Source: Bacteroidota bacterium
GTDB lineage: Bacteria > Bacteroidota > Bacteroidia > UBA4408
Assembly (NCBI GenBank): GCA_040385525.1
Contig: JAZKHE010000004.1
Span: 35,357-99,356, forward strand
DNA: 64,000 nt
Reading direction: 5' to 3'
Part shown: positions 33,012 to 60,686 of the stretch, piece after piece
Position numbering within the stretch: the stretch's first letter is position 1
Layout: each line of letters begins with the position of its first letter
Program-made: the position numbers and the translations under genes
Notes under the pieces: generated by a model
Seen by the model: only the letters and a program-made list of their open reading frames with translations
What the model was told of the DNA's origin: nothing
The model's database searches: none

Positions 33012-33403
33012 CACACAACGTGAGACACACAAAATAATTACGCAGAATACAAGCAATCAAAGATTGTTGCACTATGGGGAAAGGAAACCCTCATCTTGGC
33101 GCAAAAATTTATTTATGCATCATTCTCCTCTTTTCAGAGAAGATTTTTAATCCTGATTTTCAGGAAATATTTTCAAGGAACTTTATTACTTTAAATCAAC
33201 GATGCAAATTTTATACTCATGTACGCAGTCGAATTGCGTACTAAAATTATTTTTAAATAGTTTATCAATTTAAAATGTAAATGACTGGTTTTCAACAAGA
33301 AAAAATCACTAGTAATTAGGTTAATTTTAAATCTACGCAAATACAATGCGTAGATGATTAATAAATAGTATATTTACGTTAACTAATTTTTCAAAACTTC
33401 AAT

Positions 33404-43926: not shown

Positions 43927-43931
43927 TTAAA

Positions 43932-44666
43932 TTAATTAATCAATTTGTTTATAATATCATGAGCTTTTTTAATATCAGCTGTTTGATCATTTTCGTTTTT
44001 GTATCCTATTTTACCAACATATACATTGTTATTATGTTCGGTGAAATAAACCCTTAGTGCGGTTGGTAAATAAACTCTCAATTCATAAACAGAGCATTCA
44101 TATTTATTTGGTGTTACATCCTTGACTATTTTGGTGTCAGGATAATATTTTGTTTTTAAATTTCGAGCCTTAGCTTTTTCAAAATCTTCAATAATAGATA
44201 CTTGCTCTTGAGGAGTTAATGTGTTAAATTCTTTTTCAAATTCCGATGAAATGAAAGCCTTTTCTAATGTCACTTTAAGTTTTTCATAAGTTGATGAACC
44301 AGCATAACACCATTCTTTATATGTGGAATCATTTATTATCTGTTTATCAGGACTAATAACACTTCCTGTGAAATTTATTCCAAGAAAAGCATATTTTTTT
44401 CCGTTAGTTTGTAAAATAGCACTTTCATCGTTATTTATATAGTTGCTTACTGAAGAAAGCTTACCAATGAATTTTATTATTTCTTGTACTTCTTGTCCAT
44501 TATTAGCAAATAGTTCAACATAGTATTCTAATTCATAAACGGATTCATGCTTACAAAAATCATCCTCCTTCTTTCTATCAATTGTTATTAGTTCACTCAT
44601 ACCTTCTTTGAAATCAGAAAAATTACCCTTAGTTAAAGTTTCATTTATTAAAAACAAGTGGCTCAT
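43932..44666 (-). CDS. Hypothetical protein, third gene of the embedded DUF262-ATPase cassette.
   Basis: 244 aa, no recognisable motif. Start overlaps the ATPase stop by 4 nt. Confidence 0.45.
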   Translation of the reverse strand: MSHLFLINETLTKGNFSDFKEGMSELITIDRKKEDDFCKHESVYELEYYVELFANNGQEVQEIIKFIGKLSSVSNYINNDESAILQTNGKKYAFLGINFTGSVISPDKQIINDSTYKEWCYAGSSTYEKLKVTLEKAFISSEFEKEFNTLTPQEQVSIIEDFEKAKARNLKTKYYPDTKIVKDVTPNKYECSVYELRVYLPTALRVYFTEHNNNVYVGKIGYKNENDQTADIKKAHDIINKLIN

Positions 44667-45817
44667 GACTTTCTCATTTTAAATAATTCAGCAAAATCAT
44701 TTTGACTTTGGTCAAAAAATCCTTTTGGCCATTTTGATAACTCTCCTTTTTCTGAAATAGAAATAGATTCAACATTTGGCTGCTTGTCGCCTTCTTCCTG
44801 ACTAAAAAAGTTTATGGTTACTTGTTCAGGTTGTATATCTTTTTTTGCTGTTGCTATTTGGATGCCATTTATTACATGATCGCTATGAGTTTCGACAATC
44901 ACATTAACACCTGATTTAGCTACCATTGCTAAAAACTGACCAATTTTTGATTGTGCTGAAGGATGCAAATGTGCTTCTGGATTTTCAACAATCATGATAC
45001 TATCCTTTTTAGCAATTAAACCAGTTACAATTATTGGCAATACATAACTTATACCAAAACCAATATTTGTTGCAATTGTGCTATTTCCTTTGGTATATAT
45101 ATTATCAACTCGTATTTGTGCTGAATGTGTTTGAGGCTCGTAAAACGCAGAAATTGAAACACCAGGCATTAATTCATTTAACCAAGCATTTACCTGTTGC
45201 TCAAGTCTTTTACTTTTAGAGGAAGTGTGTCTTCTTTCATTTTCAACTTCAAACTTGTAATTAGATTCAGTATCTGAAATTAATTGAGCAACGAATTCAC
45301 CTTGATAACCGGCATTGGGATAATCATAAAATTTAATTCCTTGATTTATTCTTGGTCCAATTCTTTCAGCATTTAAATAATAAAACTCTTGCATAAATAA
45401 TGATTTTGTCATTGGCATATCATTATGGACTTCAACTGGTTTTAACCATAGATTAATTTCGTCGTTTATATCGTAAACAACTTGAAATGATTCGGGTAAA
45501 TTTTTAATATTATTATATATCGTAATAGCAGAAAAATCTGGAGATGTATTTTTAGGTATTATTAAATCACTTGTTCCTAGAGCTAAGCAATACGAACCAT
45601 TTAGTTCAACATTTAAACCGTTCGGTTCATGAAAAAGATATTGTTCGATGTTTTTTTCCCAAACTGAACAATGTTCAACTGTTCTTCTCAAAAAAAGCAA
45701 TGCCTGAATGACAGTACTTTTACCGCCCCCATTTGCGCCAGTTAAAATAGTTAATTGATTTAAAGGAATGTTTTTATTAGTAAAACACTTAAAATTTTCT
45801 ATTTGAATATTCGTCAT
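44663..45817 (-). CDS. ABC/SMC-like AAA_15/AAA_21-family ATPase (DUF3696-type, abortive-infection/defence-associated).
   Basis: Walker A TGANGGGKST. Signature ENPEAHLHP (D-loop/H-loop region typical of this defence ATPase family). 384 aa. Confidence 0.65.
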   Translation of the reverse strand: MTNIQIENFKCFTNKNIPLNQLTILTGANGGGKSTVIQALLFLRRTVEHCSVWEKNIEQYLFHEPNGLNVELNGSYCLALGTSDLIIPKNTSPDFSAITIYNNIKNLPESFQVVYDINDEINLWLKPVEVHNDMPMTKSLFMQEFYYLNAERIGPRINQGIKFYDYPNAGYQGEFVAQLISDTESNYKFEVENERRHTSSKSKRLEQQVNAWLNELMPGVSISAFYEPQTHSAQIRVDNIYTKGNSTIATNIGFGISYVLPIIVTGLIAKKDSIMIVENPEAHLHPSAQSKIGQFLAMVAKSGVNVIVETHSDHVINGIQIATAKKDIQPEQVTINFFSQEEGDKQPNVESISISEKGELSKWPKGFFDQSQNDFAELFKMRKS

Positions 45818-47214
45818 TATCTGATTGGTAAATGTTTTATTATTAGTTCATCAATTGCATTAAATACATATATTAAATTTGCTTTAGAGTTGGTACCATA
45901 TGACAAATAATTAAAAAACGTTCTATTTTCTTCAATACCTCTGGCTAAAGGTTCTAGGAGAATATTTCTTTGATAATTACTGGAAATAATTTCATGATCA
46001 ATTTTTGATAATAAAACTGAGCAACTTACAAATAAAGCTTTATTGATTAATTGTTTATTAGCGCCTGGTACAATATCTTTGGTTACAACCTTTCTAAATG
46101 CGTATCTACTTCCAAATAAATATTCAGCATTTTTCATGGCATTTGAAAAACGTGCGACATAAGTATTCAATTCTTCAAAACTAACTCTAGAGAGTGTATC
46201 CGTTAAATTATCTAACTCCGAGTCCATGTAGCCAGTATAATTATCAATTCTATTATCATTACCAATTAATCTATAAAATAAAATAAAACGTAAAGCAACT
46301 TCGTGATCGTCCATTCGGGTCGGTTTAATACTGTAATCTGTAGCCGTTAAAAACTCAGGCAAGTTAACCATTTCTTTTAGCGTATCTCTTAGACTTTTAC
46401 CCGCTAAACAATTTCTTATTTCCTGATTATTTAATGGTTTACCACCTGTATTAATACGTCTGAAAATATCGTACTTAACTTTTTGCGGAGATGATGGATC
46501 AATTACATTAACTGAAAATTGCGTTTGATTAAACCATCTGAAATATTTTCCTTCAATAGATGGCAAACCATTAGATTCTCCGTTTTTACGAGTGCTAGAG
46601 TAATATTTACCTTCACAAGAAGATTTTAAATATTCTAAACCTTTTAATGGAAATTTATTTTCCATAAAATCTTTGATAGTTGTTAATCTTTGTAATCCAT
46701 CTACTACAGTTATTCGACCTTCTTCATCTTCTGAAAAATAAAACATTGGTAAAGGAATGCGTAATAATATTGATTCGATTAATCTTGATTTTTGATGACT
46801 GTTCCAAACATAATTTCTTTGAAAATCAGGTGCCAAATCAATATCACCATCATCAATCATATCGGATATTAATCTTAAGTTGAATGCCTTTGAGTGAATC
46901 TTAATTCGTTCAGGGTCATACGGACTTACTTCAGCTACTTCAATAGATTCAGTGAATCCTGTGCCTGATTGTTGTTGTTCAATAAGTTCGAGAGCAACTT
47001 TATTTAATTTGACTTCAAGAATTTCATTACTATCTATGATTGCATCACTTTTATAAATAATTGAAAAACTTGAATTTTCTAATCTTAATGTCATCCAAGC
47101 AATGGAATTATTATCCATTAAATGAAAAATATTTTCCTCGTTGAATTCATCGAAAATTCTATATGGTGCAACTAGTACCGTTTCACCAATACCAATATTT
47201 AATTCTATATTCAT
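45817..47214 (-). CDS. DUF262 (ParB/GmrS-like N-terminal nuclease/NTPase domain) protein.
   Basis: Signature DFQRNYVWNSHQKSRLIESILLRIPLPMFYF. 465 aa. No obvious DUF1524/HNH tail. Its stop shares a nucleotide with the ATPase start. Confidence 0.6.
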   Translation of the reverse strand: MNIELNIGIGETVLVAPYRIFDEFNEENIFHLMDNNSIAWMTLRLENSSFSIIYKSDAIIDSNEILEVKLNKVALELIEQQQSGTGFTESIEVAEVSPYDPERIKIHSKAFNLRLISDMIDDGDIDLAPDFQRNYVWNSHQKSRLIESILLRIPLPMFYFSEDEEGRITVVDGLQRLTTIKDFMENKFPLKGLEYLKSSCEGKYYSSTRKNGESNGLPSIEGKYFRWFNQTQFSVNVIDPSSPQKVKYDIFRRINTGGKPLNNQEIRNCLAGKSLRDTLKEMVNLPEFLTATDYSIKPTRMDDHEVALRFILFYRLIGNDNRIDNYTGYMDSELDNLTDTLSRVSFEELNTYVARFSNAMKNAEYLFGSRYAFRKVVTKDIVPGANKQLINKALFVSCSVLLSKIDHEIISSNYQRNILLEPLARGIEENRTFFNYLSYGTNSKANLIYVFNAIDELIIKHLPIR

Positions 47215-47238
47215 AATTAATATTCCTATTTAAATATA

Positions 47239-48567
47239 CTATACCTTTATCTTACCTGTTACAGCCGAATTTATTAAACTGGCTTTATACTCTTTTAATT
47301 TTTCTATTTCTCGAACTTTGAGGGTAATTGCTGTTATGATTTTAGTACTAAAAGTTTCGATATATTCTGCAATTTCTATTTGTTCTTTCATTGGTGGAAT
47401 TACAACTGGCAACCTTTTCAATAATTCTTGACTTAAAGAGGCTCGAATAACCAAATTCATTTCGCCAACAAAAAATGACCTATGAGTTTTGCTGCTAAAA
47501 TAAAATTTAGAATAACCTTTAAACAAAACATTTTTTTTAGGTCTGAATCTGATTAAAAATCCTGCAAAAGTTGCTTGGTCAATTGTATGTAAACAAGTTG
47601 ATGCAAATCCTATTTCATCCACTGTTTCTGAAGTTCTAGTGAAAAAAACATCTCCTTCTTGAACCGAAAACTGTTTTTGATCTTTGCTATTTGATTCTGC
47701 CAAACCACTCAATTGATTTGGTAATTCAATATCATTATAAACATCACCATATGTTAAAAAAGGAAATCCTGTTCCAAAATATTCACCACCTTTACTTAAA
47801 CCATTTTGAGTTTTACCTATAAATCGAAGAGGTTTCACTTCCCAATCTTCTGGTATCTCTCCAATCCATTCCACTCCGCTATCTTTTAGTTTTATATTTG
47901 TTTTAAGCCCTCGGGTAACACTTTTGTGTATGAGTATTTGCCTGCGTTCTTTAAGCAATTCTATTTGTTTTTCTTTAATACTGATGGCTTGGTCTATCAA
48001 AGCTGTTTTCCGGTCAAGGTATTCAACAATTACAGATTGTGTTTGGTAATCAGGGAAAGGAAGAATTATTTTTTTAAAATCTTCTTTATTCAAAGATTCT
48101 CTTAATTCCATGATGCCTGTGCAATATTTTATCAAAGACTTATAAAATGATGGATTTGAAAAAATATAAGAATAATAATTAATATTTATTTGACTAGTTC
48201 TAGGTTTATAAACAAGATAAACTTGGCTGAATGCCCCATAGTATTTTGACATACCCAATGAGCCAATGACAACATTCATTTTATTTATTACAAAATCATT
48301 GGGATAAACTAGTTTGTATCTTTCAATATCCTCCGATTTGTTGTTACCAATTGCTCCTTTTTCATCGTAGGGGATTACACCTCTATCTTTTGTAACTGAT
48401 AGAATATAATCAGTCTTCCGACCTTCATTTTTTTCATTTCTTTCCTCAAATATCGCACGTATGGGAAGTGCGCCCCAATTCTCTGGAACTAATCCAGACC
48501 ATTCAACCCCTGAATCCTTATAAGCAGGATAATTTTTGACTGATGTTTTATCTGTTACCATTTGCAT
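47239..48567 (-). CDS. hsdS: Type I restriction-modification specificity subunit (HsdS).
   Basis: 442 aa with two target-recognition domains separated by a conserved coiled-coil spacer (ALIDQAISIKEKQIELLKERRQ and the C-terminal IEKLKEYKASLINSAVTGKIKV). Confidence 0.8.
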   Translation of the reverse strand: MQMVTDKTSVKNYPAYKDSGVEWSGLVPENWGALPIRAIFEERNEKNEGRKTDYILSVTKDRGVIPYDEKGAIGNNKSEDIERYKLVYPNDFVINKMNVVIGSLGMSKYYGAFSQVYLVYKPRTSQININYYSYIFSNPSFYKSLIKYCTGIMELRESLNKEDFKKIILPFPDYQTQSVIVEYLDRKTALIDQAISIKEKQIELLKERRQILIHKSVTRGLKTNIKLKDSGVEWIGEIPEDWEVKPLRFIGKTQNGLSKGGEYFGTGFPFLTYGDVYNDIELPNQLSGLAESNSKDQKQFSVQEGDVFFTRTSETVDEIGFASTCLHTIDQATFAGFLIRFRPKKNVLFKGYSKFYFSSKTHRSFFVGEMNLVIRASLSQELLKRLPVVIPPMKEQIEIAEYIETFSTKIITAITLKVREIEKLKEYKASLINSAVTGKIKV

Positions 48568-50915
48568 TATTCTAGATTTAAAATTTCACGAATTAACCCA
48601 TCACTCAATTCTTCCAATTTTATTATGTCAGCCGTTATTTCTTCAATAGCACGTAATGGTTTGTGGCGGTAAAAATATTTATTAAAACTTATTTCGTAGC
48701 CAATTTTCGTAGCATCTAAGTTTATCCAAGCTTCTGGTACATGTGGTTTAACTTCACGCAAAAAATAGGCGTAAATGTTTTCTTTTAAAGGCATGTTTTC
48801 AAAATCACGCAAATCGCTTTCGGTTTCATACTCTATATACTCGCCTTTTTTGTCGGTTACAAAATAACCGTAATCGCTCAGTTGGTCTTCGGTGCAGCCT
48901 AAGTGCTTTAATGTCACTTTTAATTTATCGCCAGTTAATTTTACAGTTCCCTTTATTACTTTTTCTGCATCTGCATCGTACCAACTAATGGCATTGAGAA
49001 TGGTATTTTTTTCGGAAGAAGATAGTTTTAGTTCTTTGCTTTTTATTATTTTATCTAACTCTAAAATAAAGGCATTAAAATCGTTATACTCTTTAGTACC
49101 AAATACTTTCATTAAATTAGTAGCTAGGTTCAGTAAGTTTAATTGCTTTTCCCAAAGTTCTTTGCTAGTTAAGCTACTTAATTGTTTTGCATTTAAATTG
49201 AGTTCATTTTTCTCTACCCAATCTTTAATATCCTTTTCGTACTTTTTTGTATCTGAATAAATTTTATTTCCGTATGTTTCATAAGCCCATTCCATGGCTT
49301 CACGTAAGCTTTTATCAAAACGTAAAGTGGCAATGCGGTCGGCTGTAAATTGTGCTTTCAAACGCTTAGGACGTTCAATAGTTACTTTGTAATAACCAAA
49401 ATCAGCATTATCAAATACTTTAGCGGCAATACCCTCATCGCCTGTGCGCTCTGCAGTTTTTAATTTTGTGTAAACCTCTAGAATTTCTTTAATGTGCGCG
49501 GGAGAAAACTCACAGTTTTTGTTACCTAAATTTTTTCGCAATTTATGGTACATTAAACCAGCATCAATTAGCTGTACTTTGCCTTTACGCTTTTTGTCTT
49601 TATTATTGGTTAGTACCCAAATATAAGTTGTTATACCCGTATTGTAAAATAGGTTGTTTGGTAATTGTATTATACAATCTAACCAATCGTTTTCAATAAT
49701 ATAGCGGCGTACGTTACTTTCGCCACCACCAGCGTCGCCAGTAAATAAACTAGAACCATTGTGAACTGATGCAATACGGGAACCTAATGGACTTTGTGTT
49801 AATGGTTTCATTTTATTAACCATCTCCATTAAAAATAATAATTGTCCATCAGATGAACGCGGTGTTGCATCAACAGTTTCCTCATTGCCCCAATAATCGG
49901 TTAATGTAATTTGAAAACGTGGGTCGATAATGTCTTTACCATCTTTAATATATTTTTGTTCACTCGCCCATGATTTACCATAGGGAGGATTAGACAACAT
50001 AAAATCAAAAGTAATACCCGCAAATTCATTTGTAGAAAGTGTAGAGCCTACACGAATGTTTTCGGGATTATTCCCCTTAATCATCATATCTGATTTACAG
50101 ATCGCATAGGTTTCATCATTAATTTCTTTTCCGTATAAATACACATCGCCTTTTGCGCGGATTTCTCCGTCTTCGTCCTTTACAAAATTTTGTGATTCTG
50201 TTAACATACCACCGCTGCCACAAGCAGGGTCGTAAATTGTCATTACTGGAGGTAATTTATCTTTAATTGGTTCAAACACGATGTGTGTCATTAAATCAAT
50301 TACTTCACGAGGCGTAAAATGTTCTCCAGCTTCTTCGTTATTTTCTTCGTTAAACTTTCTGATTAATTCTTCAAACACATAACCCATTCCTAAATTAGAA
50401 AGAGGTTGAATTTTTCTTCCGTCAGGATCGTTCTTTTCAAATGGTGTTAAGTTGATGTATGGCGATGTGAATTTTTGTAAAACATCTAACAACACATCTT
50501 TACTAGCCATGTGTTTAATTTGTGTGCGGAGATTGAATTTTTCAATAATCTCTTTTACGTTAGCGCTAAAGCCGTTTAAGTAATCTTCGAAATTGGCTTG
50601 TAATATTTGTTGGCTATTAGTTGCTGTATCATGCAAGCGCTGTAAAGTCCATTCACTTGTGTTGTAAAATACATAACCAGAAGCTTGTCTTAATCCGTTT
50701 TCGTCCCACTCTGTAAAGCCTGCTTCATCGCGTTGAAAAGTTATTTCCTCCATTACAGCATCCTTAGTGTATTCTAGCAAAGCGTCTAAGCGACGTAACA
50801 CCACCATTGGTAAAATGACATCACGGTATTTGCCTCGCACATAAACATCGCGAAGGCAATCATCAGCAATTGACCAGATAAACGAAACTAATTTGTTATG
50901 GGATGAGTTATTCAT
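48567..50915 (-). CDS. hsdM: Type I R-M N6-adenine DNA methyltransferase (HsdM), long form with a ~280-aa C-terminal extension.
   Basis: N-terminal HsdM domain. Motif I DPACGSGGML. Motif IV NPPYG (SNPPYGKSW). 782 aa, versus ~500-550 for a typical HsdM. Confidence 0.85.
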   Translation of the reverse strand: MNNSSHNKLVSFIWSIADDCLRDVYVRGKYRDVILPMVVLRRLDALLEYTKDAVMEEITFQRDEAGFTEWDENGLRQASGYVFYNTSEWTLQRLHDTATNSQQILQANFEDYLNGFSANVKEIIEKFNLRTQIKHMASKDVLLDVLQKFTSPYINLTPFEKNDPDGRKIQPLSNLGMGYVFEELIRKFNEENNEEAGEHFTPREVIDLMTHIVFEPIKDKLPPVMTIYDPACGSGGMLTESQNFVKDEDGEIRAKGDVYLYGKEINDETYAICKSDMMIKGNNPENIRVGSTLSTNEFAGITFDFMLSNPPYGKSWASEQKYIKDGKDIIDPRFQITLTDYWGNEETVDATPRSSDGQLLFLMEMVNKMKPLTQSPLGSRIASVHNGSSLFTGDAGGGESNVRRYIIENDWLDCIIQLPNNLFYNTGITTYIWVLTNNKDKKRKGKVQLIDAGLMYHKLRKNLGNKNCEFSPAHIKEILEVYTKLKTAERTGDEGIAAKVFDNADFGYYKVTIERPKRLKAQFTADRIATLRFDKSLREAMEWAYETYGNKIYSDTKKYEKDIKDWVEKNELNLNAKQLSSLTSKELWEKQLNLLNLATNLMKVFGTKEYNDFNAFILELDKIIKSKELKLSSSEKNTILNAISWYDADAEKVIKGTVKLTGDKLKVTLKHLGCTEDQLSDYGYFVTDKKGEYIEYETESDLRDFENMPLKENIYAYFLREVKPHVPEAWINLDATKIGYEISFNKYFYRHKPLRAIEEITADIIKLEELSDGLIREILNLE

Positions 50916-51368: not shown

Positions 51369-52448
51369 CTATTTTTTAATTAGAAAAGTTGACCATCCAA
51401 ATTTATCATTTTTAACTTTCCATATAAATCCATCAATAAAATAATGCAATATTTGAGGCATAGAGAGTAATGGAATTAGCAATGATAATACATCTGAATT
51501 GTTAGATAAATCAGGCAAAAAATAGGTTGTAGGGAAAATTGAAAAGTGCTCTTTCCAAACTAAACCATCCCACAACATTTCTTCAAAATAAGCTAATAAC
51601 AAAACAAGAGCTATAAATAATAAAATGTATTTTACTTTAAATAATTTACTCAGCAATGTTTGTTTAGATTCAATAATTTTTGACTTATTGCCATATGCCC
51701 AAACTAAAGCATAATAAGGAATTCCGTGGCTTACTACATTTAAAAAAGTAAAAGTTAAATCGCCTTTAAAATAAACTATTCCAAAATACCACGAAACTAT
51801 AGTACCAATTATTATTAGATTTTTAGCTAGGTTAAATTCTTTATTTTTAATACTAAAAAAAAACTCTTTAGCAAAATATAGAATTAATACAGTTACAAAA
51901 ATTAAGAAGAAAAAGGGAATTAAAACAGGTTTATCTAAATAAAAAAAATCGTTCTCTACAAACCAATTAAAATCTAATTTTCCGTTTAAATGCCAATATA
52001 AAATAGGATATATTGTGGCTGAATAAATGGTAATAGTATCAATAATTCTACTGAGTTTTGATACATCATTACGAGCGTACAATCTCATAAAACCATACTG
52101 TTGCCTTATAAAATGAAAAACAGCTAAATAGGTAATGCATCTCCAAAAAAATATTGAGTCGGTTGAATGAAGTACAACGCCAACAATGTATAATACTATT
52201 GGACTAAAGTAAAAAAGTAATTTGTTTTTATTTAACGTTTCTTTATCTAAATACGTTCTATAAATAGTGGTGTAAACATGCCCAACATCGATACATAAAA
52301 CCAATACAAACCAAACTAACTGATTACTTTCGTGGGTTTCAAAAAAACTAGGAAAAATTACAATCAGCAAAAGGCAAACAAATGGAGGAAGTAGAATAAA
52401 AGCCAAATCAAAGCCTTTCGATTTTATCCAATTATTTTTATAATTCAT
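51369..52448 (-). CDS. Polytopic integral membrane protein (~9 TM), unknown function. Last gene of the polyamine-like operon.
   Basis: 359 aa. Conserved His-containing motifs (IDVGHVYTT, VFHFIRQQYGF). Overlaps the upstream gene by 1 nt. Confidence 0.45.
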   Translation of the reverse strand: MNYKNNWIKSKGFDLAFILLPPFVCLLLIVIFPSFFETHESNQLVWFVLVLCIDVGHVYTTIYRTYLDKETLNKNKLLFYFSPIVLYIVGVVLHSTDSIFFWRCITYLAVFHFIRQQYGFMRLYARNDVSKLSRIIDTITIYSATIYPILYWHLNGKLDFNWFVENDFFYLDKPVLIPFFFLIFVTVLILYFAKEFFFSIKNKEFNLAKNLIIIGTIVSWYFGIVYFKGDLTFTFLNVVSHGIPYYALVWAYGNKSKIIESKQTLLSKLFKVKYILLFIALVLLLAYFEEMLWDGLVWKEHFSIFPTTYFLPDLSNNSDVLSLLIPLLSMPQILHYFIDGFIWKVKNDKFGWSTFLIKK

Positions 52449-54085
52449 TATTTGGTATTATTTAAAACACTTTTTGCAGCACAAATACCTCTATAAAAAG
52501 CCTGCTCAAATATTGAAATTCCGCTTACATCAGAATTTGCAAAGTAAATATTATCAAATCCATTTTCTAGAATTTGTCGAGATTTAGAGCTTCTAAAACC
52601 AACTTTTGGGCTTATCATTCCATGTCCCCAAACTACTATTTGTATTTCTTCTATTAAGTTTTCTATTTTTAAATGTGCGTTTTTTAAGTCTTCAATAATA
52701 AATGATTTCCAATAATTTTCGTCTTTTTCTCTAATTTTATTTCTTTCAATTTTAGATGATTCCTCCGAAAAATTATAATAGTAGGTAATAACGGTTCTTT
52801 TGTCATCACTATTAAAATTTTGATGGCAAGCATTTACATAACCAAGAGATTTTGAGCCATAAATCACATTGTCCCAAGATAGTTCTTGAGAGCCATTTAA
52901 CTCTAACTTATTATTGATTGTAATACTCGCTACTATCCATGGATAGTAGTTAAAGTCATCAAAATTTAAATTGGTTTTAAAATCAAAAATATTTTTGTTT
53001 ACAAATTGTGGTGTTGCTAAAATCAAATTTTCACACTCGTATTCAATACTTTCATTTTTAACTAAATCATACACATAACATTTAGTTTTGTTTTCAATTT
53101 TTTTAACCTTATAAACTATATGTTGTGTTTTAATTTTGTCGTTTAATTCAGCAGACAATTTTTTTACAAGAAAATTATTTCCCTCGGGCCAAGTTAATAA
53201 CTCATGATTTGCAGCATTAGCAGCTTTTCCGTTACGAGATGAAAAATAATGAAAAACAGCCCATGCAGAAGTATTTTTTATATTAGTTCCAAAATCATCT
53301 TTACAACAATAATCTAAATACCATAAAATAAAATTCGATTTAAAATTATTCTGTTTTAAATAATCAAATATTGAAATTTTATCTAATTGCAAATATTTTT
53401 CATCGTTACTGCTTAACTCTAAGGGAATAGTAAATGCTGGCTTATTATCAGTACCTATTGCATTTTTAAATTCTTCTGTAATTTTTAAAAATCGAAGTAA
53501 CTCTTCTTTTTCAATCTCATTCAATCCATTATCTGGAGGAATTCCATCTTGCCAAATACCTTTAAAATAAATACGTTCTTGTGGCTCAAAACACAAGTAA
53601 TATTCATTGTATATTGGTAATCCATCAGAATTAAAGCCAGTTATAATTTTACTTTCTACTAAAAAATCAATTAGTTCTTTAAAATTAACAGTTGGTATTG
53701 GCAAATAATGTGCACCCATCGGAAATTCAGATACATTATTTTTACCCGCTTTAGAATTGCCTCCAATAACTGAATCTAATTCCAAAATTAAAAAATCAGT
53801 TTTATTATTTTTAAGTAGATGTCTTGCAGCACTCAACCCTCCTATTCCAGACCCAACAATTAGTGTATTAATTTTTTTACTTGTAATTGGTTCAGGAAAT
53901 TTATTTTGCCTAATTAAATGGCCTACTTTAGGATCAGAACCAATAAATGCTAATTTAATTTGACGCTTATCAAACAATGAACACGAGCTTAAATAAGGAA
54001 CTGCTAATAGCATTGAAGATAGTTTTAAAAACTTTCTTCTGTTTACAGCATTCAAACTATTGAACTTTTCCCCACTCATCTTCAA
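52448..54085 (-). CDS. Tat-exported FAD/NAD(P)-binding amine-oxidase-like oxidoreductase.
   Basis: Twin-arginine signal NRRKFLKLSSMLLAVPYLSSC. Rossmann dinucleotide motif LIVGSGIGGLSAARHL. 545 aa. Confidence 0.6.
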   Translation of the reverse strand: MKMSGEKFNSLNAVNRRKFLKLSSMLLAVPYLSSCSLFDKRQIKLAFIGSDPKVGHLIRQNKFPEPITSKKINTLIVGSGIGGLSAARHLLKNNKTDFLILELDSVIGGNSKAGKNNVSEFPMGAHYLPIPTVNFKELIDFLVESKIITGFNSDGLPIYNEYYLCFEPQERIYFKGIWQDGIPPDNGLNEIEKEELLRFLKITEEFKNAIGTDNKPAFTIPLELSSNDEKYLQLDKISIFDYLKQNNFKSNFILWYLDYCCKDDFGTNIKNTSAWAVFHYFSSRNGKAANAANHELLTWPEGNNFLVKKLSAELNDKIKTQHIVYKVKKIENKTKCYVYDLVKNESIEYECENLILATPQFVNKNIFDFKTNLNFDDFNYYPWIVASITINNKLELNGSQELSWDNVIYGSKSLGYVNACHQNFNSDDKRTVITYYYNFSEESSKIERNKIREKDENYWKSFIIEDLKNAHLKIENLIEEIQIVVWGHGMISPKVGFRSSKSRQILENGFDNIYFANSDVSGISIFEQAFYRGICAAKSVLNNTK

Positions 54086-55571
54086 AATAATGTATCAATA
54101 TTTGATTATTTAGCTTATTTATTTCAGTTTGTACATAGCCAATATCTTTGGGAAAATTTATCATTTCTGCAAACTGTTTTTCTTCATAAAATTTTAAATC
54201 TTTAGGCAAAAAAAAGTTTTCTTTATCTAATTCATTATAGGCCAAAACATATCCCCAATCGCCAAATGATGGTAAGTATAGATGATATGGAATAGTTTGA
54301 AAACCAAGTGATGCAATTGTATTGTTTATACACCAGTATGATTTTCTTGCAAAAAAAGGTGAAGTACTCTGAACAACAAATAAACCACCTTGGTTTAGTA
54401 CTTTTTTAATTTCTTTATAAAACATTGTAGAATACAATTTTCCAACAGAAAAATTTGATGGATCGGGAAAATCTATAATAATAAAATCAAATTTTTCTTT
54501 TGTTTCTTTTATCCATTTAAAGGCATCAGTATTAATTACTTGTAATTTACTACTTGATAAAGAGTTATTGTTTAGTTTTTTTAAAGGTTCGGATGTATTG
54601 AATAAATGTGTTATAGAGTTATCCAAATCAATTAATTTAATTGATTTTACACTAGGGTATTTTAAAACTTCTCTTAATGCTAATCCATCGCCACCACCAA
54701 GTATTAATATATTTTCTGGGTTTTTAATTTTTGACAATCCGGGATGTACCAATGCTTCGTGATACCTGTACTCATCATTCGAACTAAATTGTAAATTGTT
54801 ATTTAAATATAATTTTGTTACTCCTTTTTCGCTAGTTAAAATTATTCTTTGGTAAGGCGAAGATTTGCTGAAAATAATATTTTCATTAAACGAAATTGTT
54901 TCTGCCATACTTTGAATTTTATTTGAAAATACAAAGCCTAACAACAAGATTAATGTTACTATTAAAGCCTGTGTTTTAAGGAATTTTACGTACTTAATTT
55001 CTTCTTCAAATCTAAAACACAAAATAATTGAAACTACAACATTTAGTATTCCAAAAAAGTAAGACGTTTTTAATAATCCCATGTATGGAATCATGAAAAG
55101 TGGAAACAAAATGGAAGCAAATAGTGCACCTATATAATCAAATGTAAATACCTTAGAAACTAAATCTCCAAATTCAATTTTATCTTTTAAAATTTTCATT
55201 AGAATAGGTATTTCCAAGCCAACTAAGGTTCCAGTTAGCATAATTAAAAAGTAAAGAATAATTTCAAAACCAGCAACTTGTTCAAATGCAAAAAATAAAA
55301 TAGTTGAACTAACTCCTCCAACTATACCTACCAAAATTTCGATTTGAATAAACCAAACTAGTAAATTCTTTTTAAAATACTTTGAAATGAACGACCCTAT
55401 ACCCATTGAAAAAAGGTAAAGACCAATAATAATAGAAAATTGTGTAACTGAGTCTCCTAATAGATAACTAGCTAAAGTACCTGCAATTAATTCGTAAATT
55501 AATCCACAAGTAGCAATAATAAAAACAGAGATTAGTAATAAAAAACTATCGTTTTTATTAGATTTTTCCAT
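54057..55571 (-). CDS. Membrane-anchored spermidine-synthase-family aminopropyltransferase-like protein (N-terminal ~8-TM domain + C-terminal SpeE-like domain).
   Basis: C-terminal ILILGGGDGLALREVLKYPSVKSIKLIDLD, the SpeE GGGDGG motif region. N-terminal half is hydrophobic. Confidence 0.65.
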   Translation of the reverse strand: MEKSNKNDSFLLLISVFIIATCGLIYELIAGTLASYLLGDSVTQFSIIIGLYLFSMGIGSFISKYFKKNLLVWFIQIEILVGIVGGVSSTILFFAFEQVAGFEIILYFLIMLTGTLVGLEIPILMKILKDKIEFGDLVSKVFTFDYIGALFASILFPLFMIPYMGLLKTSYFFGILNVVVSIILCFRFEEEIKYVKFLKTQALIVTLILLLGFVFSNKIQSMAETISFNENIIFSKSSPYQRIILTSEKGVTKLYLNNNLQFSSNDEYRYHEALVHPGLSKIKNPENILILGGGDGLALREVLKYPSVKSIKLIDLDNSITHLFNTSEPLKKLNNNSLSSSKLQVINTDAFKWIKETKEKFDFIIIDFPDPSNFSVGKLYSTMFYKEIKKVLNQGGLFVVQSTSPFFARKSYWCINNTIASLGFQTIPYHLYLPSFGDWGYVLAYNELDKENFFLPKDLKFYEEKQFAEMINFPKDIGYVQTEINKLNNQILIHYFEDEWGKVQ

Positions 55572-55786
55572 TAACCTCTTATCGCTGAAGAAATAATAAT
55601 TCCAATTGCTAAAATAAATGCAGCAGCAATAATAGCTAGTGCCTTATTTTGTTTTTCAAAAATTTCTTTTCTAATATTTTCAGGTGTTATTACTTCAATT
55701 ATCCAAAAAGCGAACAATAGAATCAAAATTCCTAAAATAGAGTATACAACGGCAGTGCCAATGTATTGTAAATGTAGTGCTTCCAT
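55571..55786 (-). CDS. DUF350-family small membrane protein.
   Basis: 71 aa, two TM helices (MEALHLQYIGTAVVYSILGILILLFAFWIIE...). DUF350 is commonly found next to SpeE-like genes. Confidence 0.5.
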   Translation of the reverse strand: MEALHLQYIGTAVVYSILGILILLFAFWIIEVITPENIRKEIFEKQNKALAIIAAAFILAIGIIISSAIRG

Positions 55787-55804
55787 ATTAAATTTATTTA
55801 TTAA

Positions 55805-56008
55805 TTATTTATGATAATGCGTATTTGTTCTTTCTCTAGAATGGCTAGATTCATTAAAACTTAAAAATCTCCATCCAACAATCATTGAATAGATATATAT
55901 TAAAATTAATATCAAACAAAATATTAAATAATATTTAAGTGCTTTTATATCTTCTAAATCAATCTTCATAAGGAGAATAGTTACTATTATACCATCTATT
56001 TTCTTCAA
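55805..56008 (-). CDS. Possible small membrane protein (uncertain; overlaps the upstream gene by 50 nt).
   Basis: 67-aa ORF with one hydrophobic helix. May be a spurious ORF. Confidence 0.2.
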   Translation of the reverse strand: MKKIDGIIVTILLMKIDLEDIKALKYYLIFCLILILIYIYSMIVGWRFLSFNESSHSRERTNTHYHK

Positions 56009-57221
56009 ATTTTCTTTGCTTATAAAAATAATACGCTGGGAAAATTGCCATTAGTATTAATAAAATTAAACCATTAGAGGAAATAAAAACATCTCTTGTT
56101 AATGTTATTCCTATTGACATGTTGTTTAAAGAAGTTGGTTTTTCTGGACGAATTATTAAATAATACGTTCCTTCTGGTACTGATGACGCTACTTTTGACG
56201 ACCAATTTGTTCCTTCACTCCAACTTTCTCCATCAGTATAACCGTGGTAATATTCTGCTTCTAATTCAAAATCATAAACATCTCCTGTTTTTTCATTAAC
56301 TAGCGTTGCTCCTGCATAAATCCATGAATTAAATACGGATGTTACCATCGTTATTTCAACATTTTTGGTACCATGTTTTAACTCAAAAGAATTAGTATAG
56401 TAATCTTTACCTGTAGTAGAATCATTTACATTTATGTAGTTTTTAAAGACAACTTCCTCTTTAGCTAAACCATCAAAAACAACTTGCATAGTACCCCAAA
56501 TTAATGCCAATAAAATTAAAACTTGCTTAAAAAATTTAGTTTTAAATTTTGCAACATAGGGTTGTATTTGTCCAACACCAATTCTATCTGGAACATCAAC
56601 AAGATTGAATCCGTTTTTAATTTGATTTGGAGCATAATATTCGCCTTTTAACCAAACTAGATTATCTTCAGTTTTTTCGCTAGTAATTATGTATGGAGGC
56701 AATATAAATTCTTCAATTTGTGGTTTTTCATCAGGAGAAAAATTAAATAAAAATTCTCCAACAGCTCCATCAACTTTAGATCTATATCTCGAATACAATT
56801 CAAACCGTTCATTATTTAAATAAGCTGATCTACCTTCAACATTTGGTATCTCAGTAATTTCTTTTAACAGCATCCAATGCCCGTTATACATTGTTAAATA
56901 TGCTAAACCATAAATTGGATTAAACAATGTATACTCATGCCAAGAATAATCTGTTCCACTTTCCTTTTTAAGTACAAAAGATAATGTAATATATTTTATC
57001 TTATCAATTACCCCAATAGTACCTATATCAATTATTGGTTTTTCTTTTAGTGGCTTTAGTTTCTTAAAAGATTTAATAAACCATCCATCGTAATAATTGT
57101 ATACACAAGAGCATTTAGGACAAATTACATTGTAACTTGATGAACCTAAATAAGTTTCAATAACAGCATTACATTCGCTGCAATTCTTAATTTCTTTTTT
57201 TATTTCAGAAAAAGTACTCAA
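55959..57221 (-). CDS. Zinc-ribbon + DUF4178-like protein with two TM segments.
   Basis: N-terminal CSEC...CPKC zinc ribbon. TM helices near residue 230 and at the C-terminus. The domain order parallels the next gene. Confidence 0.5.
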   Translation of the reverse strand: MSTFSEIKKEIKNCSECNAVIETYLGSSSYNVICPKCSCVYNYYDGWFIKSFKKLKPLKEKPIIDIGTIGVIDKIKYITLSFVLKKESGTDYSWHEYTLFNPIYGLAYLTMYNGHWMLLKEITEIPNVEGRSAYLNNERFELYSRYRSKVDGAVGEFLFNFSPDEKPQIEEFILPPYIITSEKTEDNLVWLKGEYYAPNQIKNGFNLVDVPDRIGVGQIQPYVAKFKTKFFKQVLILLALIWGTMQVVFDGLAKEEVVFKNYINVNDSTTGKDYYTNSFELKHGTKNVEITMVTSVFNSWIYAGATLVNEKTGDVYDFELEAEYYHGYTDGESWSEGTNWSSKVASSVPEGTYYLIIRPEKPTSLNNMSIGITLTRDVFISSNGLILLILMAIFPAYYFYKQRKFEENRWYNSNYSPYED

Positions 57222-57222
57222 G

Positions 57223-57873
57223 TTATAACCAATTATTATTATTGATATTTTCTAAATTTAATTCATTAATATTTACTTTCTTCCCCAAATTTATTTCAAC
57301 GTTTTCTTTATCAAAAATAGTAATAGTAGCTATCTCATCACCTAATTCAGAAAGCATATCGAAAATAAAAAATTGAGTAGGGTTTACGCTGTTTAATTCA
57401 ATCTGACCTTCAAATAAAAATTCAATTTGTTTTGAAATACAGTTTATAACAAAATTTTTATCATTAAATTTTATTTTGCTTTCTGCTTTTTTAAATTTTA
57501 CATTCTCAGTTATAAATTTCTTATTATCATTATCAAAAATATAATAACTACCCTGTACTTCAACAAGCCATTTCTTAGTCTCATCAGAAAATAGAATCAT
57601 CCATTCATTTGAAATATAATAAGAATTAACGCTTCTAACATAACCAATAATTTCAAATGATTTGTTTTGGTACCTGCCTAAATCACCAATTTTTAAAAGT
57701 GAAAAGAAATTTAAACTATTATATTTAATACCTAAATCATTAATCTTTTCAGACGAAAAAACTTCAAAAGAATTGTTACACTTACTACATCTAAAAGCAA
57801 ATGGAAAATCAATTTTTTGGTAAATAATTGATTTACATGATGGACAATCTATTTTTGAAGTAACAGATACCAT
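57223..57873 (-). CDS. Zinc-ribbon + DUF4178-like protein.
   Basis: N-terminal CPSC...CSKC zinc ribbon. 216 aa. Separated by 1 nt from the downstream paralog. Confidence 0.5.
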   Translation of the reverse strand: MVSVTSKIDCPSCKSIIYQKIDFPFAFRCSKCNNSFEVFSSEKINDLGIKYNSLNFFSLLKIGDLGRYQNKSFEIIGYVRSVNSYYISNEWMILFSDETKKWLVEVQGSYYIFDNDNKKFITENVKFKKAESKIKFNDKNFVINCISKQIEFLFEGQIELNSVNPTQFFIFDMLSELGDEIATITIFDKENVEINLGKKVNINELNLENINNNNWL

Positions 57874-57876
57874 AAA

Positions 57877-58236
57877 TTAACGATTTAATTTTACTGTATT
57901 TATTTCTACTCCACCTAGAAGTTTTATTAATTCATTATGAATTGATTCAACAATTATGTCATTTTCTTTAAGGTAATTGCTTAGAAAAACATCAAATGTA
58001 ACTTTATTAAACTCTGGCCAAGTGTGAATTGATATATGCGATTCCGTTAAACAAATTACAGCTGTATAACCACTATTTTCAAACTCATGATATATTTCTC
58101 CAACATTAACCAATCCATTAGCTGATATAGCATTATTAAAAAAACGCTTAACAATTGAAGAGTCCTTCAATATTTCAGGGTTGCTAACACTAAAATCAGA
58201 AATAATATGGAGGCCTTTTTTATACAAATTATTCAC
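57877..58236 (-). CDS. speH: S-adenosylmethionine decarboxylase proenzyme, small pyruvoyl-dependent SpeH/SpeD class.
   Basis: 119 aa with the autoprocessing/active-site block LTESHISIHTWPE. Confidence 0.7.
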   Translation of the reverse strand: MNNLYKKGLHIISDFSVSNPEILKDSSIVKRFFNNAISANGLVNVGEIYHEFENSGYTAVICLTESHISIHTWPEFNKVTFDVFLSNYLKENDIIVESIHNELIKLLGGVEINTVKLNR

Positions 58237-58373: not shown

Positions 58374-58631
58374 TTATCTATCTGTCTCACTTTTGTATTT
58401 TTGTATTTCGGCAGCACTAATCATCTTATAGCGCTGTTTCCCTCCAAGAGTAGCTATACGACCCTTGCGTATATGAAATAATATACCCTGTCGCGTTAAC
58501 CCGAGCTCTTTTGCAGCCTCTTCTGTAGTTAACATAGTTTGAGCTATTTTCAACTGCTTAAACTGCTCAAATTCATTCCTAAGCTCATCAAGAGCCAATT
58601 TTAGTTCTTTAATTTCTTCTTCTGTTTTCAT
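58374..58631 (-). CDS. Excisionase-like HTH DNA-binding protein (Xis/AlpA-type).
   Basis: 85 aa. N-terminal coiled coil, then HTH TTEEAAKELGLTRQGILFHIRKGRI. Sits between the repressor and the cargo. Confidence 0.55.
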   Translation of the reverse strand: MKTEEEIKELKLALDELRNEFEQFKQLKIAQTMLTTEEAAKELGLTRQGILFHIRKGRIATLGGKQRYKMISAAEIQKYKSETDR

Positions 58632-58745: not shown

Positions 58746-59297
58746 ATGGAAACAACTGTAAATCAGAGAATTAAAGACTATATTAAAATTAAAGGAATAA
58801 AATACACGGAAATTGCGGTAGCTGTAGGTTTAAGCAACCCAAATTTACATCGCTTATTATCATCTGACGATATAAAGGTAAGTATGCTTGTAAAGTTCTG
58901 TAAGGCTCTTAATGTAGATATGGATTACTTCATAGAAGGAAAGAGTAACCTACTTGCAGAGAAAAAATTTGCTTTAACGAAAAGCAAAAACAAACTAGAA
59001 AAATTAAATCAATTTTTAATAACCTTAAATAAAACATTAAATCAATTACCAGAAAAACAACAAAAACAAATCACTAGTATTTTTAACGAGTTTGATTTAG
59101 AAACTTTAAATATGGAAATTAAAAAAATTAATACCGTAAACAATCATCTCAAATCAATTGGTTTATCAGAATTACCTGTTCCAGATAAATCGAATAATAA
59201 TCAAGATTTAATTCAAAAAACACTTTTAAATCAAAGTGATCTAACCCAATTGATATGGTTAATTGAACATGCTTTACAACAAAATCAAGAAGAATAA
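58746..59297 (+). CDS. XRE/cI-like HTH repressor.
   Basis: N-terminal HTH (IKGIKYTEIAVAVGLSNPNLHRLLS). 183 aa. Divergent from the integrase. Confidence 0.6.
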   Translation: METTVNQRIKDYIKIKGIKYTEIAVAVGLSNPNLHRLLSSDDIKVSMLVKFCKALNVDMDYFIEGKSNLLAEKKFALTKSKNKLEKLNQFLITLNKTLNQLPEKQQKQITSIFNEFDLETLNMEIKKINTVNNHLKSIGLSELPVPDKSNNNQDLIQKTLLNQSDLTQLIWLIEHALQQNQEE

Positions 59298-59304
59298 ATT
59301 TACA

Positions 59305-60492
59305 TTAGCTAGCTTTTTTTACCTGACTCCTATTATTCAACTTATCCATTTCATTAAACAAAACAGAGTCAATTATTTTAGCATAAATTTGGGTTACTTT
59401 CAAATCTTTATGACCTAGTATTTTACTTACAATGTGAATTGGAATACCTTTAGCAATTGCAATCACTGCAAAAGTATGACGACTACAGTGAAATGTAATT
59501 TGCTTTTTAACGCCAGCTTTTTCAATAATTTTTTCAAGCTGCCTATTTACAACTTGATTAGTTGCCACCTTAAACACTTTACTATCACTTTTATTAGATA
59601 AATCTATTAATTCTTTAGCAGAATCAATTAAAGGAATTCTTACTTGCTCTTTTGTTTTGTGCATTATTATTACAATTAAGTTATCTTTTATATCACTATA
59701 GCGCAAATTCTTTATATCTGTGTAGCGCAATCCAGTGTAACAACAAAATAAAAAATACTTTAAAACATATTTTTGAGCTTGAGAAATATCAGAATGCAAC
59801 AAATTTTCCAAATCAATTAACTCTTTTTCGTTGCAATAATCTCTGTAAGTTGATTCTGTTTTTAACTTGTAGTTTTCAAAAACTTCATTTTGAGTTAAAC
59901 CTTGTGCTTTAGCTCTATTCACAAAATTCCTAATAAAGCGCATAGATTTATGTATGGTGTTTGTTTTATTACCTAATTTATCCCGCATATGTGCAGCATA
60001 CGCATTTAAAAAAGGAATCGTAATGTCATTAAACGATAAATTAGGGCTAAACTTTTTTAATTTGCTAGAATCACATTTTATTGTGTGAGATGAACTTACT
60101 GAATTATGCTTAGTTGTTTTATTTGCTTCAAGTTCATTATCAACAAAATCAAAGAAATTAATTACTTTTTTTTGTTTAAACTCATTTTCAAAATCATAAA
60201 ACGTTAATGATTTACGACTTACTGCATAAGAAAAAAGTATTTCCTCAGCTTTGTTAGTTGCAGACTTTATGAGTAGATTTTTCTCATCAGTTGTTTCACA
60301 ATTTTTGGACTTAATGTGAAACATTTTTTCATCCCAATCTTTTTCCTGACAAGAAACATTTAATGAATAAAGTTTTATTTGTCTGTTGATTGTTAATCTC
60401 AGGTAAATTGGATGTTCACCATTTTTCTTTTTAAAATCCTTTCTAAGGACTGGTTTTACTGTTGTTGCCATTTGTTTTACATTGTAAAACAA
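59305..60492 (-). CDS. int: Tyrosine-type site-specific integrase (Bacteroidetes CTn/phage-integrase family).
   Basis: C-terminal catalytic region HCSRHTFAVIAIAKG...ILGHKDLKVTQIYAKI (R..H..R..Y). Possible start at the internal MATTVKPV (60471). Adjacent to the tRNA-Asp 3' end. Confidence 0.85.
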   Translation of the reverse strand: MFYNVKQMATTVKPVLRKDFKKKNGEHPIYLRLTINRQIKLYSLNVSCQEKDWDEKMFHIKSKNCETTDEKNLLIKSATNKAEEILFSYAVSRKSLTFYDFENEFKQKKVINFFDFVDNELEANKTTKHNSVSSSHTIKCDSSKLKKFSPNLSFNDITIPFLNAYAAHMRDKLGNKTNTIHKSMRFIRNFVNRAKAQGLTQNEVFENYKLKTESTYRDYCNEKELIDLENLLHSDISQAQKYVLKYFLFCCYTGLRYTDIKNLRYSDIKDNLIVIIMHKTKEQVRIPLIDSAKELIDLSNKSDSKVFKVATNQVVNRQLEKIIEKAGVKKQITFHCSRHTFAVIAIAKGIPIHIVSKILGHKDLKVTQIYAKIIDSVLFNEMDKLNNRSQVKKAS

Positions 60493-60610: not shown

Positions 60611-60626
60611 AGCGGTCCGGACGGGA
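60611..60626. repeat. attL core: 16-bp direct repeat overlapping the tRNA-Asp 3' end.
   Basis: GCGGTCCGGACGGGAC, identical to 24967-24982. Confidence 0.7.
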
Positions 60627-60686
60627 CTCGAACCCGCGACCTCCGCCGTGACAGGGCGGCATTCTAACCAACTGAACTACCGGACC
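60612..60686 (-). tRNA. tRNA-Asp (anticodon GTC).
   Basis: Minus strand GGTCCGGTAGTTCAGTTGGTTAGAATGCCGCCCTGTCACGGCGGAGGTCGCGGGTTCGAGTCCCGTCCGGACCG. Cloverleaf with anticodon loop CTGTCAC. Confidence 0.9.

Follow-up and report, generated by a model that had tools for sequence, protein, structure and literature searches.

A putative membrane-associated aminopropylation cassette carried on a tRNA-Asp island in a Bacteroidota bacterium

In a 64,000-nucleotide stretch of DNA from a Bacteroidota bacterium (assembly GCA_040385525.1, contig JAZKHE010000004.1, positions 35,357 to 99,356 of the forward strand; hereafter the window, to which all positions refer unless a different locus is named), we analyzed an eight-gene operon that combines a homolog of S-adenosylmethionine decarboxylase (AdoMetDC) with an aminopropyltransferase fused to seven transmembrane helices (7TM), and that lies on an integrative island at a tRNA-Asp gene. 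Using the gene content, motifs, conservation and co-occurrence that we observed, we propose that these eight genes form a module for membrane-associated aminopropylation that is self-contained and horizontally movable and would alter the charge or chemistry of the cell envelope rather than the bulk polyamine supply; we hold this reading, together with the mechanism set out below, tentatively, at a probability of about 40%. The substrate of AdoMetDC-linked, membrane-fused aminopropyltransferases is an acknowledged open question, and thousands of bacterial genomes carry this pair of genes. The system we describe is no discovery in itself. On the evidence of its genes it clearly belongs to the already noted type of cluster that unites AdoMetDC, a membrane-spermidine synthase (SpdSyn) fusion, DUF350 and DUF4178. 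It is a compact test case for this question of polyamine biology, with concrete predictions that experiments can address.

The operon spans 58236 to 51369 on the minus strand and comprises eight intact open reading frames (ORFs) in head-to-tail arrangement, with intergenic spacings in operon order of +3, +1, -50, +18, -1, -29 and -1 nucleotides (nt). An earlier model-made annotation of this DNA (here called the original prediction) had claimed eight co-directional genes within exactly these limits, and we find all eight where it placed them, with the families of all but two confirmed using Pfam and NCBIfam. The first gene (57877..58236) encodes SpeH, a SpeH-like class 1b AdoMetDC proenzyme of 119 amino acids (aa), and is followed by D4178a (57223..57873, 216 aa), a soluble, predicted cytoplasmic protein with a zinc ribbon and a DUF4178 domain, by D4178b (55959..57221, 420 aa), which has the same two domains and two transmembrane (TM) helices, by a small single-pass membrane protein of at most 67 aa with an uncertain start codon (55805..56008), and by a half-size DUF350 (YjfL family) protein with two TM helices (55571..55786, 71 aa). 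The last three genes encode the 7TM-aminopropyltransferase fusion, which we call TMspeE (54057..55571, 504 aa), a flavin adenine dinucleotide (FAD)-dependent oxidoreductase of the amine-oxidase, protoporphyrinogen oxidase (PPO) and phytoene-desaturase superfamily, which we call FADox (52448..54085, 545 aa), and TM359 (51369..52448, 359 aa), a membrane protein with 10 TM helices that belongs to an uncurated family. Searches of Pfam and NCBIfam returned no curated family for the small 67-aa protein or for TM359. The GC fraction of the operon is 0.267, compared to 0.303 in the rest of the island and 0.31-0.33 in the flanks. A search of Rfam returned no riboswitch within or upstream of the operon, and a scan for sigma-70 promoters, with a tool that does not cover Bacteroidota promoters, found sites to be no commoner than in shuffled sequence.

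The fusion protein TMspeE consists of a 7TM region (residues 10-217) and an aminopropyltransferase domain (about residues 225-504). It matches the NCBIfam model NF002956 (PRK03612, “polyamine aminopropyltransferase”) with 653.1 bits, where the cutoff is 472, and this match takes in residues 3-503 of TMspeE and model positions 13-521 (of 522); it also matches PF01564 with an E value of 9e-42. TMspeE scores below the cutoff of the speE equivalog model TIGR00417 (139.6 bits, cutoff 249.55) and below that of NF037959, “fused MFS/spermidine synthase” (28.4 bits, cutoff 40). The motifs GGGDG, D-F-P-D-P (a D-x-x-D-P motif) and Y-H-E are all present, and each is invariant over 35 homologs. The acidic residue of GxG(D/E)G distinguishes aminopropyltransferases, which use decarboxylated S-adenosylmethionine (dcSAM), from methyltransferases, as it excludes the carboxylate of S-adenosylmethionine (SAM) (PMC10349129); TMspeE carries this hallmark of a dcSAM-dependent enzyme. 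The logic of dcSAM supply coupled to an aminopropyltransferase, as put forward in the original prediction, fits, with both GGGDG and D-x-x-D-P intact. The best relatives of TMspeE in the Protein Data Bank (PDB) are the thermospermine synthase ACL5 (6bq2, 121 bits), 7xif, and the SpeE of Thermus thermophilus (1uir, 109 bits), with lower scores for classical putrescine-specific enzymes, for example that of Escherichia coli (3o4f, 83 bits). All catalytic motifs are common to TMspeE and the thermospermine-synthase or Thermus SpeE type of enzyme, but enzymes of this type are cytoplasmic, lack a membrane domain and have defined polyamine substrates.

TMspeE contains seven hydrophobic segments, and not the eight membrane helices originally predicted. 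The mean number of lysine and arginine residues in its successive loops, taken over the 35 homologs, alternates strongly (1.74, 0.26, 1.89, 0.09, 3.03, 0.23 and 2.66). By the positive-inside rule this pattern places the N-terminus in the cytoplasm, and since there are seven helices, the catalytic domain that follows helix 7 is predicted to lie on the periplasmic face. Four acidic residues located within the membrane helices (E27, E78, E120 and D145) are invariant across phyla, a feature in keeping with a role in binding a cation, such as dcSAM or a polyamine, or in letting it pass. Sub-threshold matches to one half of MFS_1 were found in two distant TMspeE homologs only; a homodimer of TMspeE could conceivably rebuild a full MFS-like fold, because SpdSyn-type domains oligomerize. 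Two loci of Polyangia type (L025, 6221-6865, minus strand; L033, 6128-6928, minus strand) have at the transferase position a gene for the 7TM region only, matching residues ~6-210, and in both a full-length 7TM-aminopropyltransferase gene lies ~3 kb away in divergent orientation, an arrangement that suggests that the 7TM domain can act as a separate subunit.

The presumed source of dcSAM is SpeH, which matches PF02675 (AdoMet_dc) with 81.6 bits and an E value of 6e-23, and scores 75.4 bits against TIGR03330, slightly below the cutoff of 75.65. Together with the PF01564 and NF002956 matches of TMspeE, the Pfam match confirms the SpeH-like and SpeE-like calls of the original prediction at the level of hidden Markov models (HMMs). 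SpeH aligns with solved class 1b AdoMetDCs (2iii, 1tlu and 1vr7) across the self-processing site TESHISIHTWPE, and contains the pyruvoyl-forming E-S-H motif expected of a self-processing class 1b enzyme. The position of the catalytic proton-donor cysteine (Cys83 in the Thermotoga maritima enzyme) is occupied by serine, Ser86, in the sequence DVFLSNY (codon 86 at 57979-57981). An alignment of 22 operon-linked SpeH homologs demonstrated this serine in 9 of 10 Bacteroidota copies, with the cysteine kept in the Chryseobacterium copy and in the aligned copies from other phyla. Since the rest of SpeH, including the remaining active-site motif, is conserved, the enzyme is probably active, although its kinetics or its reaction may differ. 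Synthesis of a spermidine-type polyamine, as originally predicted, is doubtful, in that the closest described clusters (Li et al. 2019, see below) reportedly produce no spermidine; TMspeE also falls short of the speE equivalog cutoff, and SpeH lacks the catalytic cysteine.

The oxidoreductase FADox matches PF01593 with 39.3 bits (cutoff 19.8) over residues 81-541 and the complete model (positions 1-443 of 443), and also matches NAD_binding_8 (PF13450). Its N-terminus carries the twin-arginine translocation (Tat) motif NRRKFLK, which the original prediction had rightly singled out, then a hydrophobic stretch and, besides, a lipobox, LSSC. The pattern (S/N)RRxF(L/V/I)x and the downstream cysteine are conserved in 10 homologs from three phyla, and FADox is predicted to be a Tat-exported periplasmic lipoprotein. 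A profile of the FADox family matched amine oxidases, L-amino-acid oxidases, protoporphyrinogen oxidase, spermidine dehydrogenase and polyamine oxidases in the PDB, with the matches confined almost wholly to the FAD-binding N-terminus; FADox aligns with 7oxl, 1b37 and 7d9j at residues ~54-128 only. Its membership of the superfamily is, on these sequence matches, secure. The corresponding NCBI protein (P0327, 521 aa) begins 24 codons downstream of the first start of the ORF, and this deposited start is probably too far downstream, because the twin-arginine motif, conserved in homologs, would be lost.

TM359 has 10 predicted helices, where nine had been counted originally, with both termini predicted inside, and its invariant residues include H57, H112, H153, H241, H335, D54, D68, D167, D230, E289, E290, D294 and D339. 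Searching Pfam with 32 members of the family, at E values up to 5, returned only scattered noise such as RseC_MucC, and the name “Lycopene cyclase domain” on one UniRef entry of this family (P0089) is unsupported by any Pfam match. One member (P0245, 1278 aa) carries in addition an entire M1 aminopeptidase (Peptidase_M1_N, M1, ERAP1_C); we set this fusion aside as a single case that may be an artefact of gene calling. In our tblastn comparison of loci, described below, a match to TM359 was found in 15 loci, of which 14 (all but L022) also have the oxidase, and this co-occurrence makes FADox and TM359 look like an accessory pair.

Domain searches also confirmed the DUF4178 and DUF350 assignments of the original prediction. 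D4178a and D4178b score 29.3 and 27.3 bits against the DUF4178 cutoff of 25, and each contains the two CxxC pairs of a zinc ribbon. The claim that the two are paralogous stands as far as a common family goes, but BLASTP finds no similarity between them. D4178a has syntenic homologs in 15 loci, and in some genomes the two proteins are fused into a single one of ~635 aa. An AlphaFold2 (AF2) model of D4178b (pLDDT 85) contains the zinc ribbon and a beta-rich DUF4178 domain, a TM helix at residues 228-252, a beta-sandwich at 256-376, a second TM helix at 383-410 and a conserved short tail; from this model, the zinc ribbon and DUF4178 domain are predicted to be cytoplasmic and the beta-sandwich extracytoplasmic. 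The DUF350 protein matches positions 4-66 of the 133 in PF03994 with 50.5 bits, i.e., half of the model with two helices. For the small TM protein, syntenic tblastn matches with 45-60% identity were found in seven Bacteroidia loci, with a weak one in L007 (39%, E value 9e-5), and genes are annotated at its position in two further loci, L037 and L040.

The pathway that we infer, in its compartments, its substrate and the order of its steps, would begin in the cytoplasm, where SpeH, judged by homology, makes dcSAM. TMspeE would then move the aminopropyl group onto an amine acceptor at the membrane, one that is probably not free putrescine, with the half-MFS-like 7TM domain carrying a cation, either the donor or the acceptor, through the membrane to a catalytic domain on the periplasmic face. 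FADox and TM359 would oxidize or otherwise process the aminopropylated product further, in the periplasm or the membrane. The DUF4178 pair, DUF350 and the small TM protein may be non-catalytic subunits that span the membrane, linking the cytoplasmic zinc ribbon and beta domain with the periplasmic beta-sandwich as a binding domain. The transferase domain, the oxidase and the D4178b sandwich are all predicted to face the periplasm, and we therefore favor an acceptor in the envelope or periplasm that is aminopropylated and then processed by oxidation. The predicted periplasm-facing catalytic domain, the acidic path through the 7TM region and an oxidase in the same compartment are predictions that narrow the search to acceptors of this kind. 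A modification step in the periplasm had been suggested originally, and a flavoprotein step is indeed likely; what we would not retain is an oxidase standing alone outside, as the topology suggests that the transferase domain is located there too. The idea of specialized polyamine synthesis with periplasmic turnover was thus reasonable, and probably too conventional on the site of the reaction and on the substrate.

The most specific form of this pathway is extracytoplasmic aminopropylation, where dcSAM made by SpeH would pass through the 7TM domain, dimerized by way of the SpdSyn domain and lined with the four invariant acidic residues, and the periplasm-facing transferase domain would modify a component of the envelope (for example the headgroup of an amino-lipid, or an exported protein at its N-terminus or at a lysine), with the adduct converted further by FADox and TM359. 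We consider this version unlikely as it stands; if true, it would be the first bacterial pathway with a SAM-derived donor in the periplasm, and would show what such fusions aminopropylate. Several points weigh against the proposed module. We know of no bacterial periplasmic enzyme that uses SAM or dcSAM, and of no dcSAM exporter. The topology of TMspeE is a prediction made by the positive-inside rule alone, and the acceptor and product that we name are putative. The serine in place of the catalytic cysteine in this clade may mean that dcSAM output is low or that the reaction is altered; the likeness of FADox to solved amine oxidases, being almost entirely in the FAD-binding region, leaves its substrate class wide; and TM359 could be a transporter and not an enzyme. 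If the module is confirmed, it would be a new kind of cell-envelope modification, and would give roles to DUF4178, to DUF350 and to a family, over 2000 clusters in size, that is without a curated model.

An alternative is ordinary polyamine metabolism, in which TMspeE would be a membrane-anchored, cytoplasm-facing synthase of spermidine, thermospermine or a long-chain polyamine, the 7TM domain would export the product, and a periplasmic polyamine oxidase would recycle or degrade it. The name of the NCBIfam family that TMspeE matches so well, its complete set of catalytic motifs and its closest solved relatives, which are true polyamine synthases, all suit this explanation, as does FADox, which passes the Pfam Amino_oxidase cutoff and whose profile matches include spermidine dehydrogenase and polyamine oxidases. 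We regard it as unlikely, in that the positive-inside pattern over the 35 homologs puts the catalytic domain outside, the score of TMspeE is below the cutoff of the speE equivalog model, organisms with such fusions reportedly lack spermidine and the fusion reportedly fails to complement E. coli speE (see below), and there is no role for DUF4178, DUF350 or TM359.

A cluster of this general type has reportedly been described by Li, Kurihara, Kim, Liang and Michael (2019, Biochem J 476:2579), with thousands of class 1b AdoMetDC genes said to co-occur with a gene for an MFS–SpdSyn fusion. In that work the decarboxylases were reportedly active, spermidine was absent, the fusion failed to complement E. 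coli speE, and DUF350 was a recurrent neighbor. The operon studied here resembles those clusters in that a class 1b AdoMetDC gene lies beside that of a membrane-SpdSyn fusion and is co-clustered with that of a DUF350 membrane protein, an association that is kept in many of our loci. It differs in the addition of two DUF4178 proteins, the small TM protein, the Tat-lipoprotein oxidase and the 10-TM protein, in a fusion that fits NF002956 and not NF037959, and in the serine that SpeH carries for the catalytic cysteine. New in our analysis are the predicted periplasmic catalytic face, the four invariant intramembrane acidic residues, the Tat and lipobox signals of the oxidase, the Cys-to-Ser change in SpeH, and the pairing of the oxidase with the 10-TM protein.

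A similar set of genes occurs in the “group 2” PspA-CesT/Tir operons, which contain 7TM-SpdSyn, DUF350, DUF4178 and a Ctha_1186 lipoprotein (Ravi et al. 2024, PMC11237479), and for which Li et al. 2019 is cited on AdoMetDC gene linkages and “aminopropylation of other substrates” (PMC11237479). Both these operons and ours combine a 7TM-SpdSyn-like fusion, DUF350 and a beta-rich DUF4178 domain in one operon, but ours lacks PspA, the CesT/Tir chaperone and the ribbon-helix-helix (RHH) regulator, and has instead AdoMetDC, the flavin oxidase and TM359. Measured against the known kind, the cassette differs in having no PspA/CesT, in the added Tat-lipoprotein oxidase, TM359 and small TM protein, in the Cys-to-Ser change of SpeH, and in its carriage on an island. 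This resemblance raises the alternative of an envelope-stress or membrane-homeostasis device akin to the PspA-linked polyamine operons, which would sense or adjust membrane charge and whose product would be mainly a signal. A link between aminopropylation and membrane dynamics has been proposed for the PspA-CesT/Tir operons (PMC11237479), and most proteins of our operon are membrane-bound. We consider such a device improbable, however, since a Pfam search found no match to PspA, CesT/Tir or Band-7 in any of the eight operon proteins (0 of 8), the Band_7 gene of the island (31451-32551) is ~19 kb away in a separate operon, and the cassette itself encodes no sensor or regulator.

The proposed module, with a catalytic domain on the far side of the membrane, has an architectural precedent in the fungal enzyme NHMT (AN4663), which is located in the endoplasmic reticulum (ER), consists of a 7TM region and a spermidine synthase (SpdS)-like domain, and methylates the N-terminal histidine of secreted lytic polysaccharide monooxygenases (LPMOs) (Batth et al. 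2023, PMC10349129). NHMT and TMspeE share the order of a 7TM region followed by a spermidine-synthase-like Rossmann domain; this likeness is one of architecture. In NHMT, the acidic position of GxG(D/E)G is occupied by isoleucine and SAM serves as the methyl donor, whereas TMspeE keeps GGGDG and has an AdoMetDC partner. By analogy, NHMT may be taken as a precedent for 7TM-SpdS-like fusions that act on the non-cytoplasmic side. A second comparison is with PA4773-PA4775 of Pseudomonas aeruginosa (speD2/speE2-like), linked to surface-localized spermidine (Johnson et al. 2012, cited in PMC11107197). These genes and ours would be alike as an accessory AdoMetDC/aminopropyltransferase pair that serves the envelope and not bulk polyamine supply. 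To our knowledge, PA4774 encodes no 7TM fusion, and the PA4773-PA4775 operon contains no DUF4178, DUF350 or oxidase gene.

A scan of one genome per species identified 36 loci with relatives of the transferase, which we compared using tblastn and ORF clustering. The full order speH–DUF4178–DUF4178–small–DUF350–TMspeE–FADox–TM359 is present in three Bacteroidia metagenome-assembled genomes (MAGs; L002, L006 and L029) and, as far as the end of the contig, in L003, with transferase identities of 72-75% in these four. An equal order, with no detected match to the small protein and sometimes a single DUF4178 match, occurs in Sediminibacterium (L004), Chryseobacterium daecheongense (L008), a Cyclobacteriaceae MAG (L030) and a Planctomycetaceae MAG (L017). 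Shorter or rearranged versions were also found: Acidobacteriota loci keep the genes from speH to TMspeE and lack the oxidase and TM359; in a Rhodocyclaceae MAG (L013) the oxidase is present and speH comes last in the operon; and TMspeE–FADox–TM359 occurs in two Sandaracinaceae MAGs (L018 and L019). Clustering of ORFs around the operon in the 36 loci showed no conserved neighbors beyond the eight gene families. Chitinophaga agri (L037), whose genome is complete, also has the cassette with its genes in the same order, and two further MAGs (L039 and L040) carry it as well. A megablast comparison of the operon with plasmids returned no match. Among complete relatives of our operon, the closest, with a transferase that is 75% identical, is on contig JAOQAG010000017 (L039), where a gene for a Type I HsdM (1-1008, minus strand) precedes speH by ~3 kb; the cassette is thereby found near restriction-modification (R-M) genes a second time, independently of our island.

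A homolog of the integrase of our island was found in none of the 36 loci, and no integrase or transposase lies near the cassette in the annotated loci L037, L039 and L040, whose neighboring genes are mutually unrelated. TIR_2 and caspase-like genes are located 3-5 kb downstream in L037, and ordinary genes surround the cassette in L040. This recurrence in unrelated contexts without the integrase indicates that the cassette is not island-specific but, as judged from the genomes compared, a widespread unit found in many genomic contexts, here captured by an integrative element. The original prediction had held that it would fail if the operon proved to be a conserved core feature of the genus, not specific to the island and with a known product; the operon is indeed found outside islands of this kind, and no known product is attached to it. 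As an eight-gene cassette that is compact, complete and seemingly horizontally transferable, it is a practical unit for heterologous expression.

That the cassette is carried here on an integrative island next to defense cargo, as originally claimed, is supported by a repeat, an integrase, an excisionase-like gene and a Type I R-M system with NsnA, NsnB and NsnC. The tRNA-Asp(GTC) gene (60612..60686, minus strand) is the integration target, and the 16-nt sequence GCGGTCCGGACGGGAC at its 3′ end (60612-60627, as read on the plus strand; the proximal repeat) recurs once in the window, at 24967-24982, where it marks a putative far attachment site; the number of such recurrences expected by chance in the window is 3e-5. 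A tyrosine integrase with an Arm-binding domain (59305-60492, minus strand) adjoins the tRNA gene, followed by a helix-turn-helix (HTH) gene (58746-59297, plus strand) and the excisionase-like HTH_17 gene (58374-58631, minus strand). Islands integrated at tRNA genes are marked by a tyrosine integrase adjoining the tRNA gene and by a copy of the tRNA 3′ end, in direct repeat, at the opposite boundary; these features support an element of about 35.6 kb that the 16-nt repeats delimit.

The Type I R-M operon (40888-50915) encodes HsdM (48567-50915), HsdS (47239-48567) and HsdR (40888-43926), all on the minus strand. Between hsdS and hsdR, PADLOC identified genes for NsnA (45817-47214; GmrSD_N domain, E value 6e-113), NsnB (44663-45817; AAA_15/DUF3696, E value 3e-112) and NsnC (43932-44666; E value 6e-44), also on the minus strand. 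With this system and an RtcB/PrfH module (see below) as island neighbors, and an HsdM gene ~3 kb upstream of the related cassette in L039, the cassette might be anti-phage or competition cargo that makes, e.g., a toxic aminoaldehyde and H2O2 in the periplasm from an aminopropylated substrate, but we judge this highly improbable and reject a defense role, as the sole PADLOC match of the operon proteins is a generic methyltransferase-fold match to mad2, the integrase has no homolog in the 36 loci, and L037, L039 and L040 lack a nearby integrase or transposase, with ordinary neighbors in L040, albeit with the TIR_2 and caspase-like genes in L037 and the HsdM gene in L039.

The remainder of the island contains genes in addition to those of the cassette and the R-M system. 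A gene encoding a VIT-domain protein (841 aa) is directly followed by one encoding an exosortase (EpsH-family) membrane protein (440 aa) at 35984-39831 on the plus strand, and the two are possibly a protein-sorting pair carried as cargo. Towards the distal repeat, genes for a Band-7 protein (31451-32551), two RtcB ligases (29910-31331 and 27905-29308), a PrfH-like protein with an RF-1 domain (27233-27862) and an M41 FtsH-like protease (25192-27264) form a single operon, with a gene for a WYL regulator (33404-34417) in divergent orientation. Just upstream of the Band-7/RtcB operon are two adjoining tRNA-like or YrlA-like (Y RNA-like) elements (32845-33017, minus strand), which score 46 bits against YrlA, below the gathering score of 69, and include one match to the tRNA model, at 35 bits, above its gathering score; ARAGORN makes no tRNA call for these elements. 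The Band-7/RtcB/PrfH-like operon and the YrlA-like elements together resemble a module for RNA repair or ribosome rescue that brings its own Y-RNA-like cofactors.

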